From the NCBI GenBank assembly GCA_963795665.1, contig CAWCIP010000016.1:15930-79929 (forward strand): DNA of 64,000 nucleotides, read 5' to 3'. Of the stretch, positions 8,403 through 64,000 are shown one piece after another (the first letter of the stretch is position 1; each line of letters begins with the position of its first letter). Both the position numbers and the translations under genes were made by a program. The DNA comes from an uncultured Solirubrobacterales bacterium (GTDB lineage Bacteria; Actinomycetota; Thermoleophilia; Solirubrobacterales; 70-9). The notes under the pieces were generated by a model. It ran no database searches. It saw nothing but the letters and a program-made list of their open reading frames with translations, and was not told the origin of the DNA.

Positions 8403-8765
8403 ATGAATATGACAACGACATTGACTGACTCGCCGTTCGAGATCTCGGAGGCGCCTACGGAGGCCGAGCTGCTCGGCAAGTACTTCCGGGTCCTCGCGGA
8501 CCCCACCCGAGTTCGGATCCTGGAGGCGCTCGAGGCCGACGACGAGTTGTCGGTGGGAGATCTGGCCGAGAAGCTGGCGGTGGCCCAGCCGAGCGTCTCC
8601 AACCACCTCGCCTGCCTGCGCTGGTGCGGCTTCGTCGCCACCCGGCGGGAGCACCGTGCCGTCTACAACCGGATCGCGGACCCGCGCGTCACCAAGTTGG
8701 TCGCGCTCGCCCGCTCGCTCCTGGAGGCCAACGCCGAGCACGTTGCCGCCTGCCGGAGGGCGTAG
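8403..8765 (+). CDS. ArsR/SmtB family metalloregulator with a CmtR-like Cys arrangement
   Basis: HTH LSVGDLAEKLAVAQPSVSNHLACLRWCGFV (two Cys in the recognition helix) plus a C-terminal HVAACRRA cysteine. Confidence 0.85.
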   Translation: MNMTTTLTDSPFEISEAPTEAELLGKYFRVLADPTRVRILEALEADDELSVGDLAEKLAVAQPSVSNHLACLRWCGFVATRREHRAVYNRIADPRVTKLVALARSLLEANAEHVAACRRA

Positions 8766-8818
8766 AGGGGTTCGTCGCCGCCTGGCCCGCTGATTCGCAG
8801 ACCTGGCGACCGCCGCGC

Positions 8819-9658
8819 TCAGCCTCGGTTCCTGTACAGGTGCGCCGTCAGCGGGGCGAAGATGGCGGTCATGATGGCGGCCGCCGCGAGCACCCAGGCG
8901 ATCTGAGAGGGGGTGGCGCTGCCCTCCATCAGTCCACGCTCCGCCGTGACCAGGTGCGTCACCGGGTTGACCTCGGTGAAGGCCCGAAGCCAGGAAGGCA
9001 TCGTCTCGGGTTGGACGAAGACGTTGCTCATGAAGGTGAGTGGGAAGAGCACCACGAAGCCGATGCTCATCACGGCGTTGGGAGTGCGAAGGACGAGGCC
9101 GAGCGTCGTCCAGATCCATGACAGCCCGAACGCGAAGGCGAGGACGAGCGCAACCGCTCCGACCATGCCGGCCACCCCGCCCTTCGGATCGAATCCCATG
9201 ATCAGGCCCAGCCCGATCACCAGCGTCGAGGCGAGCAGGTAGCGGCCCGTGTCGCCGATCAGCCCTCCGACGATCGGAGCCGGCCGCCAGATCGGGAGCG
9301 AACGGAATCGGTCGAAGGCGCCGGTAGCGAGGTCGCGGTTCAGCGTCACCCCGCTGTAGACGGTGACGAAGACCACGGCGAGGGCGAGGGTTCCCGGGAG
9401 CAGGAACTGCAGGTAATCGCCCGTCGAGCCGGCCAGCGCCCCGCCGAAGAGATAGGTGAACATCAGCGTGAAGAGCAGAGGGATCCCGATCACGTCGCCG
9501 AGCTGCTCGGGAACGTGCTTGATCTTCAGCAGCGAGCGCCAGGCGAAGGTGAGCGAGGCCGAGAGCGCGCTCGCCCGCCCAGGTGAGAGAGCATCCGCCA
9601 GCGGGACCCGCGCGCCCGCCCGGTCAATGCCGTGAACGTCGGAGCTCGAGCCAGGCAT
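8819..9658 (-). CDS. ABC-2 type transporter permease (DrrB-like)
   Basis: Six predicted TM segments. The start shares TAATG with the upstream ATPase stop. Confidence 0.8.
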   Translation of the reverse strand: MPGSSSDVHGIDRAGARVPLADALSPGRASALSASLTFAWRSLLKIKHVPEQLGDVIGIPLLFTLMFTYLFGGALAGSTGDYLQFLLPGTLALAVVFVTVYSGVTLNRDLATGAFDRFRSLPIWRPAPIVGGLIGDTGRYLLASTLVIGLGLIMGFDPKGGVAGMVGAVALVLAFAFGLSWIWTTLGLVLRTPNAVMSIGFVVLFPLTFMSNVFVQPETMPSWLRAFTEVNPVTHLVTAERGLMEGSATPSQIAWVLAAAAIMTAIFAPLTAHLYRNRG

Positions 9659-10710
9659 TACGCCGCGTTCCTCTCGGGGGCTTGCTCGGGTTGGGATTCG
9701 GAGGCACGGCCCGTCAGCGCCAGGAAGACCTCGTCCAGGCTCGGCTGGCCGAGAGAGAAGTCGCTGACCGGCAGACCCGCGCGCGAGAGCGCCGCCAGGG
9801 CTCGCTCGGCACGCGCCGCGGCCTCGCCCCTGCCGTCCTCCGACGGGATCTGCGCGGACAGTCGCGCGCGATCGCCCTCATGGTGCACGGAGACCCCGAG
9901 CTCCGACGCCAGCACCTGCTCCGCCCGGTCCCGCTCCCCGGGGTGGACCAGCTGCACGCGCAGGCGACCGGCGCCCACGGACGCCTTGAGCTCGTCCCGG
10001 GTTCCCTCGGCGATCACCCTGCCCATGTCTATGACCGCGATCCGGTCAGCGAGCTGATCGGCCTCGTCGAGGTACTGGGTGGTGAGCAGGACCGTCGTGC
10101 CCCTGGCGACGATGGCGCGGACCACCTCCCAGAGCTGATTCCGGCTGCGCGGATCGAGCCCGGTGGTGGGCTCGTCGAGGAAGAGCAGCTCCGGTGTGCT
10201 GATGATGCTGGCGGCGATGTCCAGCCGCCGGCGCATGCCGCCGGAGAGCCGGGTCACCGGTACCCCCGTAGCCTCCGAGAGGCCGAAGGCCCCGAGCAGC
10301 TCCTTCGCCCGTGCCCTTGCGCCTCTCCAGGAGTGACCGAGGAGACGGCCGAGCATGACCAGGTTCTCGAGCCCGGTCAGATCCTCGTCGACAGACGCGA
10401 ACTGGGAGGTCAGGCTGATCCTGCTGCGGATGGCCCCCGGGTCGCGGACCACGTCGTGGCCAAGCACGCGTGCCGTCCCCCCGTCGGGAGCCAACAAAGT
10501 GGCGAGGATCCGGATCGTGGTGGTCTTGCCTGCCCCGTTGGGACCGAGGAAGCCGTAGACGCAGCCTCGGGGCACGCGCAGGTCGACACCGTCGACGGCC
10601 CGCTTCGACCCGAAGGCCTTTCTCAACCCCTCGGTCTCGACCGCGAGCTGCCCTTGATCCGTTTCGTGCGATTCGGCCATCGCGTCGACAATAGCACGTA
10701 TACTGTCCAT
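9658..10710 (-). CDS. ABC transporter ATP-binding protein (DrrA-like)
   Basis: Walker [11 protein letters not shown], signature LSGGMRRRL, Walker [13 protein letters not shown]. Confidence 0.9.
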
Positions 10711-58396: not shown

Positions 58397-59952
58397 GCCG
58401 CTCGGAGCGGTTCGTCCTGGCCGTCGACCTGGGCAGCGGCGCTCTCAAGGTCGGTGTGGTTTCCCTGGCGGGCGAGATCGCCGCCGTGGAGGAGCGAACC
58501 TACGAGACCGAGCGGCTTCCGGGAGGCGGCGCCGTTCAGGACGCCTCGGGCTGGTGGGAGATGGTGCGGGAGCTCGGTCGCTCGGTCCTCGAGGGCATCC
58601 CCGCCGACGGAGTCGTCGCCGTCTCCTGCACCGGCCAGTGGGCGAGCACCGTCCCGGTCGACGAGGCGGGGGAGCCGGTCGGGCCCTGCGTGATGTGGCT
58701 CGATACGCGCGGCGCCGGCCATTCGCGAGACGTCGTCGGCGGACCGCTGCTCGGCTACTCCCCGCCCGCGCTGGCGAGCTGGATCCGCCGCACCGGCGGT
58801 GTGCCCTCCCCGTTCGGGGGCGACCCCGTCAGCCACATGCTCCACCTGGAGCGAGACGAGCCAGAGGTCGCGGCGGCCGCCCGCTGGTACATGGAGCCGG
58901 TCGACTATCTGACCATGCGGTTCACCGGGCGGGCGGCGGCCACCCACGCCTCTATGAGCGGCGCCTGGCTGACCGACAACCGGCACCTCGACAGGTTCAC
59001 CTACGACTCGGCCCTGGTTGGCAGGGCGGGCCTCGACCCCGGCAAGCTGCCACCGCTGGTTGAGACCGGCTCGCTGGTGGGGACCGTTCGGCCGGAGGTG
59101 GCCTCCGATCTCGGGATCAGCCCCGAGGCTCAGGTCGTCACCGGCACCCCGGACCTGCACTCCGCGGCGCTCGGCTGCGGCGCGATCGGCGAGGGAGAGG
59201 CTCACATGAGCATCAGCACCACCTCCTGGATCTCGCTGCCCTTCGAGCGCAAGAAGACCGACGCGATGCGGTCGATCGCGACCGTGCCCGGGCTGGACTC
59301 GCAGAGCTACCTGGTCGCCAACAACCACGAGGCGGCGGGTCTCTGCCTGCGCTGGCTGCGGGACAGCTTCACGACCGGGGAGCCCGCGAGCTTCGAGCGG
59401 CTGGTGGAGCTGGCCGCGAGCTCGCCTCCCGGCAGCGGCGGCATCCTGTTCACGCCCTGGATCGCTGGCGAACGCTCGCCGGTCGACGACCGCAACGCCC
59501 GCGGGGGCTGGCACAACCTCTCCGTCGAGACGGACAACGCCGACCTGGTCCGGTCGGTGCTCGAGGGTGTCGCCTACAACTCCCGCTGGCTGAACGAGGC
59601 GGTTGAGCGCTTCGCGAAGCGGCGCCTCGACCCCCTCCGCATCTTCGGAGGCGGCGCTCTACCCGACCTCTGGTGTCAGATCCACGCCGACGTCATGGAC
59701 CGGACCATCGAGCGGGTTGCCGATCCGGTCCACGCCAACCTCCGGGGCGCCGCGCTCTTCGCCTCCCTCGCCATGGGGAAGGTCTCGCGGGATGAAGTGC
59801 GGGGGCTCGTGCCGGTCGACCGCTCCTTCAAGCCGAACCCGGCCAACCGCGAGGCCTACGACCGACTCTACGCCGAGTTCCCCGGCCTCTACAAGGCCCA
59901 GCGCAAGATGTTCGCCCGGCTCAACGGCCGGGCGAATGAGACCTCCGGCTAG
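58393..59952 (+). CDS. FGGY family carbohydrate kinase
   Basis: GTGA overlap. VLAVDLGSGALKVG N-terminus and GGGALPDLWCQIHADV C-terminal motif. Confidence 0.85.
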   Translation: MSRSERFVLAVDLGSGALKVGVVSLAGEIAAVEERTYETERLPGGGAVQDASGWWEMVRELGRSVLEGIPADGVVAVSCTGQWASTVPVDEAGEPVGPCVMWLDTRGAGHSRDVVGGPLLGYSPPALASWIRRTGGVPSPFGGDPVSHMLHLERDEPEVAAAARWYMEPVDYLTMRFTGRAAATHASMSGAWLTDNRHLDRFTYDSALVGRAGLDPGKLPPLVETGSLVGTVRPEVASDLGISPEAQVVTGTPDLHSAALGCGAIGEGEAHMSISTTSWISLPFERKKTDAMRSIATVPGLDSQSYLVANNHEAAGLCLRWLRDSFTTGEPASFERLVELAASSPPGSGGILFTPWIAGERSPVDDRNARGGWHNLSVETDNADLVRSVLEGVAYNSRWLNEAVERFAKRRLDPLRIFGGGALPDLWCQIHADVMDRTIERVADPVHANLRGAALFASLAMGKVSRDEVRGLVPVDRSFKPNPANREAYDRLYAEFPGLYKAQRKMFARLNGRANETSG

Positions 59953-61307
59953 GCCGGGACCCGCGCCACCTCGGCATCGCCGGTGACCGAGTAGAGGGCC
60001 CACTCGCCGGGGACGCCCCGGAGCTCCTGCGCGCCCCGCTCGGCGAACTCGAGCCCCGAACCGACCACCAGGTCCTTGACCGTGCTCGTGACGAGCACCT
60101 CTCCCGGGCCCGCCGCGTCCATCACCCTGGAGGTGAGGTGCACGGCGATCCCGGCGACGTCGTCGGCCATCACCTCGCACTCGCCGGTGTGCACCCCGGC
60201 GCGGATCTCCAGGCCCATCTCGCGCGCCACGTCGCAACTCGCGCGGGCGCAGCGTACGGCTCGCGCGGGGCCATCGAAGGTCGCCAGCGCTCCGTCGCCG
60301 GTCCAGTTCACGAGACGCCCGCGGAAGCGGCCGAGCTCCCGCTCCACCCGTCGCTGATATCGGTCGAGCAGCTCGCGCCAACCCCGGTCGCCGAGCTCGG
60401 CGGCACGATCGGTGGACTGGACGATGTCCATGAAGAGGACGGTGGCGAGCATCCGATCGCGGACCGCGGCCGCCGGCTTGCCGGTGACGAACTCCTCGAT
60501 CGGGTCCAGCATCGCGTCCATGTCGCCCGCCACCCAGAGGTGATCCGAGCCCGGCAGCTCGATCTCCGTGGCGCCCGGGATTCCCCTGGCCACCGCCCGA
60601 GACATGGCGGCGGGCACCAGCCTGTCGCCGGCGCGATAGAGCACCATCGTCGGCACCTTCACCGCCGGCAACAGCGGTCGCACGTCGAGGTCCTCGTACA
60701 TCGCGGAGACTCGCCTTGCGGTGCTCGGGCTCGCGCCTGAGCGGAGCATCCGGCCCCACCACTCGCGCACCTCCGGGTCGTCCGCGACGCTCGGCGCCCA
60801 GACGTTGAGGGACTCGGGGTCCCCCCAGTTCTCCACGATCCGGTCCCAGAAGGGCCGGAGGACGTCGAGCGGAATCCCCTCCTCGTAGTCCTCCGCTCGA
60901 GGGAGGCGGGCGAAGGTTCCGTACTGGACCATCGCGCTGATCCGGTCGGGATGCGCGGCGGCCAGCATGGTGGCGGCGGCGCCGCCCTCCGAGATGCCGA
61001 ACAGCACCGCCCGCTCGACCTCGCAGGCGTCGAGGACCGCAAGCGCGTCGTCGACGATGTTCTCGAGCGTGTAGGCGCCCGCCTCCCGGTCGGACAGGCC
61101 CATGCCGCGCTTGTCGAAGGCGATCACGCGGGCGAACGACCCGAGCCTCTCCCAGAAGCGCTGCGCGAGCGGGGGCTCCCTGCCGATCTCGAGGTGACTG
61201 ACGAAGCCGCCCATGAACAGGACGTCAACGGGCCCGTTCCCCACGGTCGCGTAGGCGATCGAGGCGTCGCCGTTGTGGGCGTAGCGGCTCGGCGACCAGC
61301 TCAGCAT
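59949..61307 (-). CDS. alpha/beta-hydrolase fused to class III adenylate/guanylate cyclase (LipJ/Rv1900c-like architecture)
   Basis: Only the last 452 codons of the listed 1189-aa ORF. Hydrolase elbow GISEGG. Cyclase motifs FMDIVQST, WTGDGALATF, RAGVHTGE, AVHLTSRV. Confidence 0.85.
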   Translation of the reverse strand: MLSWSPSRYAHNGDASIAYATVGNGPVDVLFMGGFVSHLEIGREPPLAQRFWERLGSFARVIAFDKRGMGLSDREAGAYTLENIVDDALAVLDACEVERAVLFGISEGGAAATMLAAAHPDRISAMVQYGTFARLPRAEDYEEGIPLDVLRPFWDRIVENWGDPESLNVWAPSVADDPEVREWWGRMLRSGASPSTARRVSAMYEDLDVRPLLPAVKVPTMVLYRAGDRLVPAAMSRAVARGIPGATEIELPGSDHLWVAGDMDAMLDPIEEFVTGKPAAAVRDRMLATVLFMDIVQSTDRAAELGDRGWRELLDRYQRRVERELGRFRGRLVNWTGDGALATFDGPARAVRCARASCDVAREMGLEIRAGVHTGECEVMADDVAGIAVHLTSRVMDAAGPGEVLVTSTVKDLVVGSGLEFAERGAQELRGVPGEWALYSVTGDAEVARVPA

Positions 61308-61349
61308 CGTTCCAGCGTACTGTCGGCGGCTGGGATACTTGGTCGGGCC

Positions 61350-64000
61350 ATGCGGTGTCCGTCCTGCGGCAATGAGAATCGTGAGGGCGCACGATTCTGC
61401 GACTCGTGCGGCAATGACCTGACCGCCGAGCCGGCCGTCGCCGAGCCGCGGCCCGAGCCGCTGCCGGCGGACGTCCCGAGCGAGATCGCGGGCCGCTACC
61501 GCGTCCGGCGCTTCCTTGGGCAGGGGGGGCGTAAACGCGTCTATCTCTCCGAGGACACGGCGACGGGCACCGAGGTCGCGGTGGCGCTGTACGACACGGC
61601 CGGGGTGGGCGCCGGGATCCAGGCAAGGGCGCGCCGCGAGGCCGAAGCGATGCGAAAGCTGGGCGACCACCCGCAGGTCGTCACGGTCCTCGACACGGGT
61701 GAGGACGGCGGCAACCCCTTCATCGTCAGCCGCTACATGCCGGGCGGCGACGTCGCGGGCTTGCTCTCGGCGGCAGGCGGGAGCCTCGAGGTGACTCGGG
61801 CCGTCGAGATCGCCGCCGACGTCACCCGTGCGCTCGAGCATGCCCACGCCCGCGGCATCGTCCACCGCGACCTGAAGCCCGCGAACGTCTGGATCGACGA
61901 CGACGGACATGCGCGCCTCGGCGATTTCGGCCTGGCGACGACCGAGGCCCGAGCCCGTGTCAGCGGCGGCACGCTGGTCGGCACGGTCGCCTATCTGCCC
62001 CCCGAGCAGGCGCTCGGCGAGGCCGCCGGGCCGAAGGCCGACCTCTATTCGCTCGGGGCCCTCCTCTACGAGATGCTCACCGGCCAGCCTCCATTCCCCG
62101 GCGACGACGCGGTTTCCATCATCTCCCAGCATCTGCACGCGGACCCGGTGCCGCCGTCCCGCCACAACCAGCAAGTTCCTGAGGCGCTCGACCCGGTGGT
62201 GCTCGAGTTGCTCGCCAAGCGCCCGGAGGATCGACCGGCCAGTGCCGGCGAGTCTCGAAAGCAGATGCTTGCCGCGCTCGAGGAGAAGCCGGCCGAGTCC
62301 GCGGAGGAGCGCCGGGCCAATCCACTCGAGGGCCTCGCCGGCGGCGTCTTCGTCGGCCGCGAGCTGGAGCTCGAGCGCCTGCGGGAGGCCGTCGACGCGG
62401 CGCTCGGCGGGCGTGGGTCCCTCCAGCTGCTGGTCGGAGAGCCCGGGATCGGCAAGACCCGCGGGGCCGAGGAGCTGGCCACCTACGCGAGGGTGAGCGG
62501 AGCGCGCGTCTACTGGGGCCGCTGCCGCGAGGACGAGGGCGCTCCCGCGTACTGGCCCTGGGTCCAGGCGATCCGCGCGTACGCGCGGGACGCCGACCCC
62601 GTCGCCCTCGCCTGGCAGCTCGGCGCGGGAGCGGCAGAGGTGGCCCAGCTGATCCCCGAGGTCGCAGAGAAGCTCGACATCGAGCCGGCGAAGGGCACCG
62701 ATAGCGAGGAGGCCCGCTTCCGCCTCTTCGACTCGGTGACCAGCCTGATGCTCGCGGCTGCCCGCGACCGGCCGATCGTGATCGTGCTCGACGACCTCCA
62801 CTGGGCCGACGAGCCCTCGCTCCTGCTCCTCCTCTTCGCAGCGCGGGAGCTCGCCTCGAGCGGCCTGCTGATTCTCGGCACCTATCGCGACGTCGAGCTC
62901 GGCCGCCATCACCCGCTCGCCCGCGTCCTCGGCGAGATCTCCGGCATCGAGGGAAGCGAGCGAATCCCGCTCCGCGGGCTCTCGGTCGGCGCGGTCGAGC
63001 GCTACATCGAGATGACCTCGGGGGCCGCCGCCCCGCCCGGGCTTGCCCAGGCGGTGCAGGAGCAGACGGACGGCAACCCGTTCTTCGTCGGCGAGGTGGT
63101 CCGGCTGCTCGCCAGCGAGGGCAAGCTCAGCAGCGGCGGCAGCGTCGCCGACCTCCAGATCCCCCAGGGTGTCCGGGAGGTCGTCGGGCGCCGCCTCGAC
63201 CGGCTCAGCGAGCGAACGAACGAGGCTCTCCGGGTGGCCGCGGTGATCGGCCGCGACTTCGAGGAGGAGCTGGTCTGGCGGGTGGCGGACCTGCGCCCCG
63301 AGGACCTGATGACCACCGCGCGAGAGGCGATCGCCGAGCGCCTGGTCACCGATCTCGGCGATGGGCATTACTCGTTCGCCCACGCTCTGGTTCGCGACAC
63401 GCTCTACGAGGAGCTCAGCCCGCCCAAGCGCTCGGCGCTCCACGAGCGCGCCGGGCTCGCGATAGAGGAGGTCTGTGGCGGCAATGTCGATGAGCGCCTC
63501 GGCGAGCTGGCTCACCACTTCCTGGAGGCTGCTCCTCGCGGGGATCTCGCCAAGGCGATCGACTACGCGCAGCGAGCCGGCGAGCAGGACATGGAGCAGC
63601 TGGCCTACGAGGATGCGGTCGAGGTGTACGGGAGCGCCCTCGAGGTGCTCGACCTGATGGAGGGGCCCGATGAGGCTGTCCGCTGCAGCCTGCTGCTCTC
63701 GCTGGGCGGTGCGGAGGCCAAGTCAGCCCGGGTGGCGGACGCGCGCGAGGCGTTCGAGCGCGCGGCGGAATCGGCGCGGCGACTCGATGACGCCGACAGC
63801 CTGGTCGGAGCCACGATCGGGATCGCGATGATGAGCGACGCGGGCAGGCTCGACGAGAAGCTCCTCGCCCTGATCGACGAGACGCTGGAGCGGATCGGCC
63901 CGGAGCGCACCGCCCGCCGCGCGGCCCTGCTCAGCGCCAAGTCGGCCGAGATGTACTGGAGGGACAACGACATCAACGAGTCCACGCGGCTGGTGGACGA
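61350..64000 (+). CDS. zinc-ribbon / Ser-Thr protein kinase / STAND (AAA) ATPase / TPR-like multidomain protein, 3-prime end outside the window
   Basis: Not in the ORF track. Open from ATG 61350 to 64000. MRCPSCGNENREGARFCDSCG; HRDLKPAN; DFG; Walker A GEPGIGKT; Walker B VIVLDDLHWAD; helical repeats to the window end. Confidence 0.85.
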   Translation, partial: MRCPSCGNENREGARFCDSCGNDLTAEPAVAEPRPEPLPADVPSEIAGRYRVRRFLGQGGRKRVYLSEDTATGTEVAVALYDTAGVGAGIQARARREAEAMRKLGDHPQVVTVLDTGEDGGNPFIVSRYMPGGDVAGLLSAAGGSLEVTRAVEIAADVTRALEHAHARGIVHRDLKPANVWIDDDGHARLGDFGLATTEARARVSGGTLVGTVAYLPPEQALGEAAGPKADLYSLGALLYEMLTGQPPFPGDDAVSIISQHLHADPVPPSRHNQQVPEALDPVVLELLAKRPEDRPASAGESRKQMLAALEEKPAESAEERRANPLEGLAGGVFVGRELELERLREAVDAALGGRGSLQLLVGEPGIGKTRGAEELATYARVSGARVYWGRCREDEGAPAYWPWVQAIRAYARDADPVALAWQLGAGAAEVAQLIPEVAEKLDIEPAKGTDSEEARFRLFDSVTSLMLAAARDRPIVIVLDDLHWADEPSLLLLLFAARELASSGLLILGTYRDVELGRHHPLARVLGEISGIEGSERIPLRGLSVGAVERYIEMTSGAAAPPGLAQAVQEQTDGNPFFVGEVVRLLASEGKLSSGGSVADLQIPQGVREVVGRRLDRLSERTNEALRVAAVIGRDFEEELVWRVADLRPEDLMTTAREAIAERLVTDLGDGHYSFAHALVRDTLYEELSPPKRSALHERAGLAIEEVCGGNVDERLGELAHHFLEAAPRGDLAKAIDYAQRAGEQDMEQLAYEDAVEVYGSALEVLDLMEGPDEAVRCSLLLSLGGAEAKSARVADAREAFERAAESARRLDDADSLVGATIGIAMMSDAGRLDEKLLALIDETLERIGPERTARRAALLSAKSAEMYWRDNDINESTRLVD

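Follow-up and report, generated by a model that had tools for sequence, protein, structure and literature searches.

Introduction

Since 2000, the WNK family has been the textbook exception among protein kinases. A survey of 2007 named it as the sole family of functional ePKs without K72 (PMC1821047), and both in WNK1 and in POMK a lysine of strand beta2 is needed for activity (PMC10211241; PMC13519141; PMC1821047). The positive charge has likewise moved from position 72 to beta2/position 55 in POMK (SGK196) and in CAK-chloro (PMC10211241; PMC13519141; PMC1821047), the former being a eukaryotic glycan kinase with relocated HRD/DFG equivalents and the latter a small-molecule-kinase-like family with Arg55 and Met72 in which the alphaC Glu is lost. 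Regarding bacteria, seven pseudokinase families are listed in an atlas of 2025, which covers about 300,000 Ser/Thr kinases, and in the review that accompanies it, both of which mention WNK solely as an analogy from eukaryotes (10.1101/2025.01.12.632604; PMC12599244). No description of a WNK-like lysine relocation in bacteria was found in the searchable literature, although an earlier mention is possible.

With respect to domain architecture, mycobacterial proteins of the Rv0386 type combine a class III cyclase with an AAA_16/TPR STAND module; in contrast to the protein described here, the Rv0386 type and LipJ lack a kinase and carry a LuxR DNA-binding or a lipase domain. To our knowledge, PknK of Mycobacterium tuberculosis has neither a zinc ribbon nor a cyclase, and its K55 is presumably the canonical beta3 lysine, unlike A79 at this site in our protein. 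A comparison with PknK, made in an earlier sequence-only reading of the DNA, is apt. An N-terminal Hanks kinase, an AAA_16 STAND core and MalT-like TPR are shared by both proteins (PMC4381067), and some members of the clade described below are named 'PknK, partial' by NCBI. PknK is inactivated by the K55M mutation (PMC9045387).

The gene and its product

The window, i.e. the whole stretch of 64,000 nucleotides analysed, ends inside a gene located on its plus strand (61350..64000), as are all the features of this gene given below. The uninterrupted frame that had been read from the ATG at 61350 was found open for 883 codons up to the window end, and it is missing from the list of ORFs solely because there is no stop codon inside the window. 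The start codon is supported by the fact that the orthologues all begin with MRCPSCG. The translated product showed 95% identity across all its 883 residues to an orthologue of 1443 amino acids (P0001), and the orthologues, from Solirubrobacterales MAGs, were 82-95% identical, about 1440 amino acids long and ended in a class III nucleotide cyclase. Judging from them, the gene extends about 560 codons past the window end, up to the cyclase domain, and the window holds its first 61% (883 of ~1440 codons), encoding the zinc ribbon, the kinase, the STAND core and the start of the TPR region. The ORF is the first part of a cytoplasmic signalling protein from a Solirubrobacterales (Thermoleophilia) soil bacterium, whose predicted domains are, in this order, a C4 zinc ribbon, a PknB-like Ser/Thr kinase, a MalT/PknK-type STAND NTPase, a TPR sensor and a class III cyclase. 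The domains listed in the sequence-only reading were recovered, but that list omitted the C-terminal cyclase, which lies beyond the window.

A residue-by-residue check of the translation recovered every motif that had been named. The C4 zinc ribbon CPSCG...CDSCG (residues 3-24, 61356..61421), proposed from its double CxxC pattern, matched Pfam Zn_Ribbon_1 with 30.9 bits over a cut-off of 25; among 34 representative relatives, a single ribbon was detected in 22 and a double one in 20. The Hanks-type Ser/Thr kinase domain (residues 50-297, 61497..62240) was matched by Pfam Pkinase with E = 4e-45 (PF00069, 154.6 bits vs. a cut-off of 31.7), and the bilobal kinase fold was present in the structural model. 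As had been read, this domain contains the catalytic loop HRDLKPAN (H172-N179, 61863..61886), a DFG (192-194) and an alphaC glutamate, E97 (codon 61638-61640), with which the motif RARRE (93-97, 61626..61640) ends. The DFG is followed by the activation loop and PPE (217-219), the stretch from DFG to PPE being 61923..62006, and the catalytic loop, this stretch and E97 are supported by conservation in relatives. This conserved glutamate is the normal partner of the ATP-binding lysine in protein kinases. From the catalytic triad, the HRD Asp (D174) and the DFG Asp (D192) are present, whereas the VAIK Lys is replaced by A79; lacking this lysine, the domain counts, formally and by sequence, as a pseudokinase, in the same way as WNK.

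Position of the relocated lysine

The segments concerned were delimited by alignments to PknB and WNK1. The glycine-rich loop plus strand beta2 reads GQGGRKRVY (57-65, 61518..61544), with K62 (codon AAA, 61533-61535) in place of the third glycine, equivalent to PKA G55 and WNK1 K233, and strand beta3 reads VAVAL (76-80, 61575..61589), with A79 (codon GCG, 61584-61586) at the canonical VAIK lysine site, equivalent to WNK1 C250. Both assignments had been made in the sequence-only reading and held in the translation and in the alignments: phmmer placed VAVAL opposite VAVKV of M. tuberculosis PknB (1mru), and BLASTP against WNK1, with a reference sequence identical to PDB 5w7t, put K62 on K233 and A79 on C250 without gaps through the N-lobe (28% identity), in agreement with the proposed WNK-like register and 17-residue spacing. 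The PknB and WNK1 alignments were both ungapped through beta1-beta3. Within residues 1-130 there are just two lysines, K62 and K103, and no other lysine was found in the N-lobe sheet that could occupy the beta3 site. The 17 residues from 62 to 79 are the distance that we take to separate G55 from K72 in PKA; from this spacing and the known kinase fold, positions 62 and 79 are expected to be cross-strand partners, like V64/A77.

The window kinase therefore carries, in the same register, the loop lysine plus a non-lysine beta3 residue that constitute the WNK-type sequence pattern. As in WNK (K233/C250), the residue at beta3 is small and the spacing is of 17 residues, and both kinases also keep the alphaC Glu, the HRD, the catalytic Asn and the GT/APE of the activation loop. 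Unlike WNK, the window kinase has DFG instead of DLG, lacks the WNK accessory domains and forms part of a protein with zinc ribbon, STAND, TPR and cyclase regions. Compared to POMK and CAK-chloro, the Hanks core is fully canonical except for the swap.

Conservation of the swap

The conservation of these positions was followed in 87 non-redundant relatives (<80% mutual identity) that belong to Thermoleophilia, Dehalococcoidia/SAR202 and a small number of further groups. K62 was kept in 87/87, whereas position 79 was A in 73, S in 11, C in one, R in one and never K. E97 was kept in 86 relatives. The HRD was equally constant (H 87, R 87, D 86), as were K176 and N179 (86 each), the DFG (D192 86, F193 85, G194 84) and T212, P218 and E219 (87/87 each).

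The survey of orthologues that the sequence-only reading had suggested for the K/A pair gave the same result, with the pair of lysine and small residue kept throughout several hundred relatives, including the 120 closest orthologues. K62 with a non-lysine residue at position 79 was found in all 76 kinase matches from 75 genome loci and also in 119 profile hits, and a normal VAIK was carried by none of the relatives (0 among 120 + 75 + 57 + 119). At the DNA level, the K62 codon was AAG in 64 of the matches and AAA in 12, all four Ala codons were in use at position 79 across the clade, and synonymous codon turnover was detected at K62, A79 and E97.

The limits of the swap were apparent when representatives of 50%-identity clusters were compared. 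All 57 domains at or above about 44-45% identity carried it, whereas the loop lysine was absent from 209/209 more distant kinase domains below this value, most of which showed the canonical GxGGMGxVY...VAxK, with about 40 of them lacking the beta3 lysine. Among these representatives, the loop lysine was found only alongside a small beta3 residue. As the 57 swapped domains form a single clade, a Fisher test on these counts gives no valid probability. The swap probably has a single origin, and the agreement of so many sequences should be read as evidence of constraint and not as repeated independent events. The gene is a member of a large clade and not a single odd gene, and a bacterial clade of this size with a relocated lysine is apparently undescribed. 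All the members seen come from uncultured organisms.

As seen in the 87 relatives, two residues that mark bacterial kinases were likewise lost in the clade, the Met of the glycine loop and the 'RF' Phe of alphaC (hallmarks as in the atlas, 10.1101/2025.01.12.632604), which indicates that the N-lobe was remodelled beyond the single swap.

Fold and kinship

An AlphaFold2 model built on an alignment of 135 sequences reached a pLDDT of 88.6; an earlier model, based on a shallow alignment (23 sequences, 81-95% identity; pLDDT 53.9), was discarded. K62 is placed at the beginning of beta2 and A79 within beta3, and the alphaC helix spans residues 49-65 of the model. The best Foldseek matches were to PknB (TM 0.84-0.92), and the first 50 fold matches included no WNK structure. 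The sequence match to PknB (E = 1e-54, 38% identity) was also closer than that to WNK1 and, together with the DFG in place of DLG, this argues against membership of the WNK family. As fold and sequence are PknB-like and not WNK-like, the WNK-like swap is convergent and not homologous.

STAND core, sensor region and cyclase

The kinase is followed by an AAA_16/STAND nucleotide-binding domain (residues 334-508, 62349..62873) with a Pfam AAA_16 match of E = 2e-27 (97 bits vs. a cut-off of 32.6). The Walker A motif GEPGIGKT previously read in the sequence is at residues 363-370 (62436-62459), and the Walker B, IVIVLDDLHWAD, at residues 476-487 (IVIVLDD(LHWAD), 62775-62810); G363, G366, G368, K369, D482 and D487 were invariant among 38 diverse relatives. 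Downstream, the motif TDGNPFF (63066..63086), which from general knowledge of STAND proteins we take to be the expected GxP-type motif of the helical domain, was conserved in the same 38 relatives, with G575 and F579 invariant and N576 and P577 in at least 90% of them.

The TPR-like helices of the sequence-only reading were apparent in the window as a weak MIT match (residues 733-770, E = 0.0015) within a helical-repeat (TPR/MalT-like) sensor region that starts at 63447 and is cut by the window end (63447..64000), and they were better supported in the orthologue, with TPR_MalT at 755-966 (E = 2e-5) and TPR_12 at 1144-1208. TPR_12 was detected in 26 of the 34 representative relatives. The P-loop with Walker A and B, the GxP helical domain and the repeat sensor that characterize STAND proteins are all present. 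A search of PDB sequences with the STAND/TPR part gave no relatives.

Beyond the window, the cyclase was recognized in orthologue P0001 by PF00211 (74.5 bits). Pkinase and AAA_16 were each found in all 34 representatives, TPR in 26 and the cyclase in 23-25, the latter being absent in 9/34. Among 25 cyclase domains, the metal Asp residues were kept in 24, the substrate Lys in 19, the substrate Asp in 21 and the transition-state Arg in 24, whereas the position of the canonical transition-state Asn was I in 10, N in 10 and A in three. As the subclade of the window protein has Ile instead of this Asn, its cAMP output is uncertain.

There is no NCBIfam equivalog model that covers the clade. The best-scoring full-length NCBIfam model for the window protein was TIGR03903 (TOMM kinase/cyclase fusion), itself not an equivalog model, with which the gene product shares a kinase, a cyclase and an AAA/helical-repeat part in one polypeptide, as judged by its name and the match positions. 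Membership was rejected because the score was 287.6 bits vs. a cut-off of 705.75, with seven relatives also below it (249-320 bits), and because the domain order is apparently different: in TIGR03903 the AAA/TPR part starts at about profile position 470 and the cyclase presumably lies between kinase and AAA, whereas here it is C-terminal. In two clade members (P0130 and P0194), the C-terminal cyclase matched the cyclase part of the LipJ (Rv1900c) model.

Putative role of the relocated lysine

The above results favour, with a probability of about 0.65, an active kinase that would rely on its beta2 lysine as part of a kinase/cyclase hub gated by the STAND core. A working rather than a dead kinase is probable because the whole bacterial clade carries the swap. 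We infer from the sequences a catalytic role for K62, in which the ATP-anchoring lysine would have left beta3 (A79) and reappeared on the adjacent beta2 at the third-glycine position. As cross-strand neighbour of position 79, K62 would face the ATP pocket, and its side chain would occupy the space vacated by the small residue 79, so that it could pair with E97 of alphaC and position the ATP phosphates, making this an active RD-type kinase. With regard to its control, a ligand bound to the TPR sensor may free the STAND core, which would swap ADP for ATP and then multimerise, as proposed from work on MalT and PH0952 (PMC4381067; PMC6468293). Multimerisation could gather the kinase domains for trans-autophosphorylation and also join the cyclase domains into a dimeric active site and, as both would be brought together in the same step, one signal could drive phosphorylation and cAMP output.

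An unlikely explanation, which nevertheless has evidence in its favour, is that of a true pseudokinase, a nucleotide-binding or scaffold module regulating the STAND core or the cyclase, in which K62 merely binds nucleotide or stabilises the loop. The absence of the beta3 lysine and the loss of the glycine-loop Met and the RF-Phe fit with it, as do the roughly 40 domains of the same search without beta3 lysine, which resemble pseudokinase repeats, and the existence of bacterial pseudokinase-ATPase fusions such as CP1 with COG3899 (PMC12599244). However, the HRD Asp, the catalytic-loop Lys and Asn, the DFG Asp, the alphaC Glu, the GT and the APE are kept in 84-87 of the 87 relatives, a retention that would be unlikely after loss of catalysis, whereas nearly all the described families of bacterial pseudokinases also lose HRD/DFG residues (10.1101/2025.01.12.632604). 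Moreover, an invariant loop lysine found only with a small beta3 residue is the pattern of WNK, which is active (PMC10211241).

It is improbable that the kinase is active without K62 being the substitute, with ATP positioned by another basic residue (R61, R63, R93/R96, K82) or by metals alone and K62 conserved for another purpose, e.g. substrate or anion binding. Basic residues are frequent nearby, as position 61 is R/K in 74/87 relatives, position 63 is R/K in 63/87 and position 82 is Lys in 55/87, and Arg-based ATP binding has been modelled in other bacterial families (PMC12599244). But none of these positions is invariant, with S, Q, T, G and D also accepted at 61 and 63, whereas K62 alone is present in 87/87 and in precise cross-strand register with the site of the missing lysine. 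K82 was also discarded as a substitute lysine on its own account, being Asp in the window protein and in 15/87 relatives and variable in the family.

Still more improbable, and drawn by analogy with WNK, would be an independent bacterial WNK-type site in which, as in WNK, the departure of the lysine from beta3 opens a pocket behind the DFG/activation loop through which ions or ligands could switch autophosphorylation; such proteins might then be direct ionic or osmotic sensors driving phosphorylation and cAMP output. Finally, there is next to no chance that the gene is a single decayed copy, that the alignment misleads or that a WNK was acquired horizontally from a eukaryote. Nothing of weight speaks for any of these, WNK1 aligning at just 28% identity, and against them stand the retention of the pair by all the relatives examined, across several phyla and as far as 44% identity, the gapless beta1-beta3 alignments, and the bacterial PknB as top match in sequence and fold, with DFG here vs. 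DLG in WNK.

If the beta2 lysine does serve an active kinase, the relocation of this residue would be a solution that evolution can repeat rather than a single exception, in a clade plentiful in soil Thermoleophilia and in marine and soil Dehalococcoidia/SAR202, with a catalytic core otherwise intact. The clade would also offer a natural system for the changes that accompany a moved lysine, such as those at the glycine-loop Met and the alphaC RF-Phe, and motif-based pipelines would be mislabelling thousands of bacterial kinases as dead. Likewise, one chain predicted to unite kinase, STAND switch and cyclase could serve as a model for coupled phosphorylation and cAMP output.

Genomic neighbourhood

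Upstream and divergent on the minus strand there is a gene for a LipJ-like fusion of an alpha/beta-hydrolase and a class III cyclase (59949..61307; Pfam Abhydrolase_1 and Guanylate_cyc), the start of which is 42 bp from the kinase ATG. A functional pairing of both genes was rejected, as this adjacency was found only in the closest relative (L001), and no conserved partner gene of the kinase was found at the relatives' loci. Rfam and tRNA scans of the window found nothing. In a PADLOC search, the best 25 of 34 matches were all to the kinase domain only (PD-T4-6, mad6, PglW and others). These generic kinase matches and the location of the gene in a conserved syntenic block of housekeeping genes (cytochrome bd, PHO4 and FGGY) led us to reject an anti-phage STAND system. 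A long minus-strand ORF (59949..63518) that overlaps the kinase gene is a high-GC artefact beyond 61307.

The kinase gene and its domains

Translation of the plus strand from the ATG at 61350 gives 883 codons without a stop up to the window end, as the sequence-only reading had claimed. Its explanation for the absence of this frame from the mechanical ORF list, the lack of a stop codon within the window, also proved right, since the list excludes ORFs that run off an end. A 1189-aa minus-strand ORF (59949-63518) overlaps most of the kinase gene but was rejected as a gene beyond 61307, as a high-GC artefact. Only its last 452 codons, from the ATG at 61307, correspond to a real divergent gene, the remainder being antisense and free of stops, as is common at the G+C content of the window (69%). 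Neither tRNA genes nor Rfam families at gathering score were found within the 64-kb window (1-64000).

By Pfam, the protein has a zinc ribbon at residues 3-24 (30.9 bits against a cut-off of 25), followed by a kinase domain at 50-297 (E = 4e-45) and, at 334-508, by an NTPase domain of the AAA_16 family (E = 2e-27), in agreement with the zinc ribbon, Ser/Thr kinase and AAA/STAND module proposed from the sequence. The motifs listed in that proposal were all found in place: the glycine loop GQGGRKRVY (residues 57-65), VAVAL in beta3 (76-80), RARRE in alphaC (93-97), the catalytic loop HRDLKPAN (172-179), DFG (192-194), Walker A GEPGIGKT (363-370) and Walker B IVIVLDDLHWAD (476-487).

Position of the lysine in the kinase domain

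The kinase domain was aligned by phmmer to that of M. tuberculosis PknB (1mru) with E = 1e-54 and no gaps across beta1-beta3. In this alignment LGQGGRKRVYLSEDTATGTEVAVAL of the window protein is paired with LGFGGMSEVHLARDLRLHRDVAVKV of PknB, therefore A79 occupies the site of the PknB beta3 lysine, while K62 is aligned to a Ser at the third-glycine position of the loop. When compared by BLASTP to the WNK1 kinase domain (sequence identical to PDB 5w7t), LGQGGRKRVY...EVAVAL was matched without gaps to IGRGSFKTVY...EVAWCE, so that K62 corresponds to K233 and A79 to C250. Both pairs are 17 residues apart, which bears out the claim of a WNK-like loop lysine with a substituted beta3 site at that spacing. 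The distance from G55 to K72 in PKA is 17 as well. In the kinase fold, V57 pairs with A70 and G55 with K72 (PKA numbering) across neighbouring strands, on the side of the ATP pocket, and the same register holds in the window protein for V64/A77 and K62/A79. Within residues 1-130 the only lysines are K62 and K103, so the N-lobe sheet offers no alternative; another lysine at beta3, which would have contradicted the claim, is absent.

An AlphaFold2 model obtained with a 135-sequence alignment (pLDDT 88.6, pTM 0.87) placed K62 as the first residue of beta2 and A79 within beta3, and located E97 on helix alphaC. Foldseek searches with the kinase model revealed a PknB-like fold (TM 0.84-0.92 to PknB), with WNK structures absent from the top 50.

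Conservation and limits of the clade

The pair formed by the loop lysine and a small beta3 residue was followed among bacterial relatives. In each of the 120 closest database proteins (82-95% identity), which derive from MAGs of Solirubrobacterales and from metagenomes of soil, the loop lysine is accompanied by Ala or Ser at beta3. A scan with one genome per species yielded 80 loci, from Solirubrobacterales/Thermoleophilia (53-89% identity) and from Dehalococcoidia, Chloroflexota and SAR202 (42-51% identity), with Myxococcota represented by one MAG; the pair was present in 76/76 kinase matches covering the N-lobe (75 loci). It was also detected in 119/119 further proteins recovered with a profile of 30 diverse members. 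A normal VAIK motif in the orthologues, foreseen as a possible objection, was thus met in none of these three sets.

An exhaustive HMMER search with residues 1-325 against 1.84 billion cluster representatives showed a clean identity boundary between swapped and other kinase domains. At or above ~45% identity, 57/57 domains read GxG..K.V[YF]...VA.[A/S/C], whereas below ~44% the loop lysine was found in 0/209; 159 of the latter were canonical, typically GxGGMGxVY...VA[LIV]K, and ~40 lacked the beta3 lysine and the loop lysine alike. K62 is encoded by AAG in 64 matches and AAA in 12, and all four Ala codons are in use at position 79; the codon differences are synonymous and reflect purifying selection. 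A single origin of the swap is probable, and the conservation counts therefore show constraint and not repeated events.

Two kinase domains in tandem, both with the loop lysine and beta3 Ala, occur in some relatives, namely P0127 (3024 aa) and locus L042 (3001-3756 and 4080-4952). Marine Dehalococcoidia/SAR202-type MAGs carry 3-4 paralogues of the kinase-STAND gene per genome (L058, L059, L060 and L065 in one Dehalococcoidales MAG; L062, L063 and L073 in one Chloroflexi MAG), and Solirubrobacterales MAGs one locus apiece in the list. In L058 and L081, both from Dehalococcoidia, Pro/Gly/Ser-rich low-complexity inserts of ~35-45 residues are located between the hinge and alphaE (columns 118-173 of A4, an alignment of relatives).

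Predicted activity of the kinase domain

Except for having its lysine on beta2 and not on beta3, the catalytic core is intact. Among 87 relatives sharing <80% identity, K62 is present in 87/87 and position 79 is A in 73, S in 11, C in 1 and R in 1. E97 is found in 86/87, H172 and R173 in 87/87 each, D174, K176, N179 and D192 in 86/87 each, F193 in 85/87, G194 in 84/87, and T212, P218 and E219 in 87/87 each. The main alternative, a nucleotide-binding pseudokinase, appears less likely in view of this near-invariance of the alphaC Glu, HRD, Asn and DFG, which would be expected of a working enzyme and not of a dead one; in almost all bacterial pseudokinase families described so far, in contrast, HRD or DFG has also been lost (10.1101/2025.01.12.632604).

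We favour, with a probability of about 65%, an active kinase that relies on K62. The side chain of K62 would span over the small residue 79, pair with E97 and place the ATP phosphates, a role held in WNK1 by K233 (Xu 2000 and Min 2004, to the extent recounted in PMC1821047, PMC10211241 and PMC13519141). The domain would then be an active RD kinase; position 205 in its activation loop is a conserved Thr/Ser.

Comparison with known kinases

The active-site arrangement of the clade would work like that of WNK, but the clade is not WNK and the likeness is convergent: the window protein is 28% identical to WNK1, compared to 38% to PknB, it has DFG where WNK has DLG, and its setting is bacterial. 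Among characterised proteins, PknK of M. tuberculosis, whose K55 we take to be its canonical beta3 lysine, comes closest in architecture; some clade members are already named 'PknK, partial' by NCBI. PknK is inactivated by K55M (PMC9045387). Other relocations of this charge are known in POMK and in the CAK-chloro subfamily (PMC10211241, PMC1821047).

Two hallmarks of bacterial Ser/Thr kinases, a glycine-loop Met and the 'RF' Phe of alphaC (2025 atlas, 10.1101/2025.01.12.632604), are replaced throughout the clade, the first by R/K at position 61 (R61 in the window, 61530-61532) and the second by V/I/A at position 94 (A94, 61629-61631). Therefore, the lysine swap was accompanied by a remodelling of the hydrophobic loop-alphaC contact at the N-lobe interface.

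A full-text literature search retrieved no bacterial WNK-like kinase and no bacterial beta2 lysine, though an earlier remark may exist elsewhere. In the 2025 atlas of bacterial kinases (10.1101/2025.01.12.632604) and in a review, WNK appears solely as an analogy from eukaryotes, and WNK and POMK are the only cases given in reviews of 2023 and 2026. The clade proteins are already in public databases under generic names. A large bacterial clade repeating the WNK solution, as read from the sequences of uncultured organisms, would surprise a kinase specialist.

The whole protein beyond the window end

The contig with P0001, a 95%-identical orthologue, is syntenic to the window (cytochrome bd, PHO4, PLP decarboxylase, FGGY kinase) and contains the complete gene. 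Orthologues are ~1440 aa long and show, past the window end, further helical repeats (TPR_12 and TPR_MalT) and a C-terminal class III adenylate/guanylate cyclase domain (PF00211, E = 1e-20). Among 34 representatives at <=50% identity, the kinase and AAA_16 domains were detected in all (34/34 each), TPR in 26, the cyclase in 23-25, a single zinc ribbon in 22, a double one in 20 and a GGDEF (diguanylate cyclase) domain, by Pfam match, in 1. Among relatives, little or no variation is seen at the Walker A and B residues or in a GNPFF motif.

Nine of the 34 proteins lack a cyclase and terminate after the TPR region. The cyclase-less members in alignment A2 are P0220, P0228, P0180, P0214, P0173, P0245, P0168, P0231 and P0178, and a common ...LKA tail (e.g. 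LERALRHK..LKA) is shared by P0220, P0180, P0245, P0168 and P0231.

The P0001 cyclase (residues 1262-1419) retains the two metal Asp, the Arg and a Lys/Asp pair of the adenine type; the canonical position of the transition-state Asn is occupied by Ile (GKNVILAAR), with an Asn two residues before. Clade members have I (10), N (10) or A (3) there, and subclades may therefore vary in cyclase activity.

No NCBIfam equivalog matched at cut-off, the TOMM_kin_cyc model reaching 288 bits vs. a cut-off of 706; PADLOC gave generic kinase matches only, among the best 25 of 34, and the STAND/TPR part had no sequence relative in the PDB.

For the whole protein we propose the standard STAND scheme (PMC4381067, PMC6468293), in which a signal bound by the TPR would lift autoinhibition, the STAND core would swap ADP for ATP and the protein would multimerise. 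The multimer would gather the kinase domains for trans-phosphorylation and the cyclase domains into their obligate dimer.

The divergent neighbour gene

The divergent gene (59949-61307, minus strand) encodes a 452-aa fusion of an alpha/beta-hydrolase and a class III cyclase that resembles mycobacterial LipJ/Rv1900c, and its start codon lies 42 bp from the kinase ATG. This adjacency is kept only by the locus of the closest relative (L001), so the LipJ-like protein and the kinase are probably not a functional pair. In L001, 95% identical, ~1.5 kb separate the two genes (8487-10000). This stretch, missing from the window and without an Rfam match, contains an uncalled minus-strand ORF with glycerophosphodiester-phosphodiesterase-like sequence (HQGGEDEAPSNT...ELDVNLSSDGQLMVIHDD).
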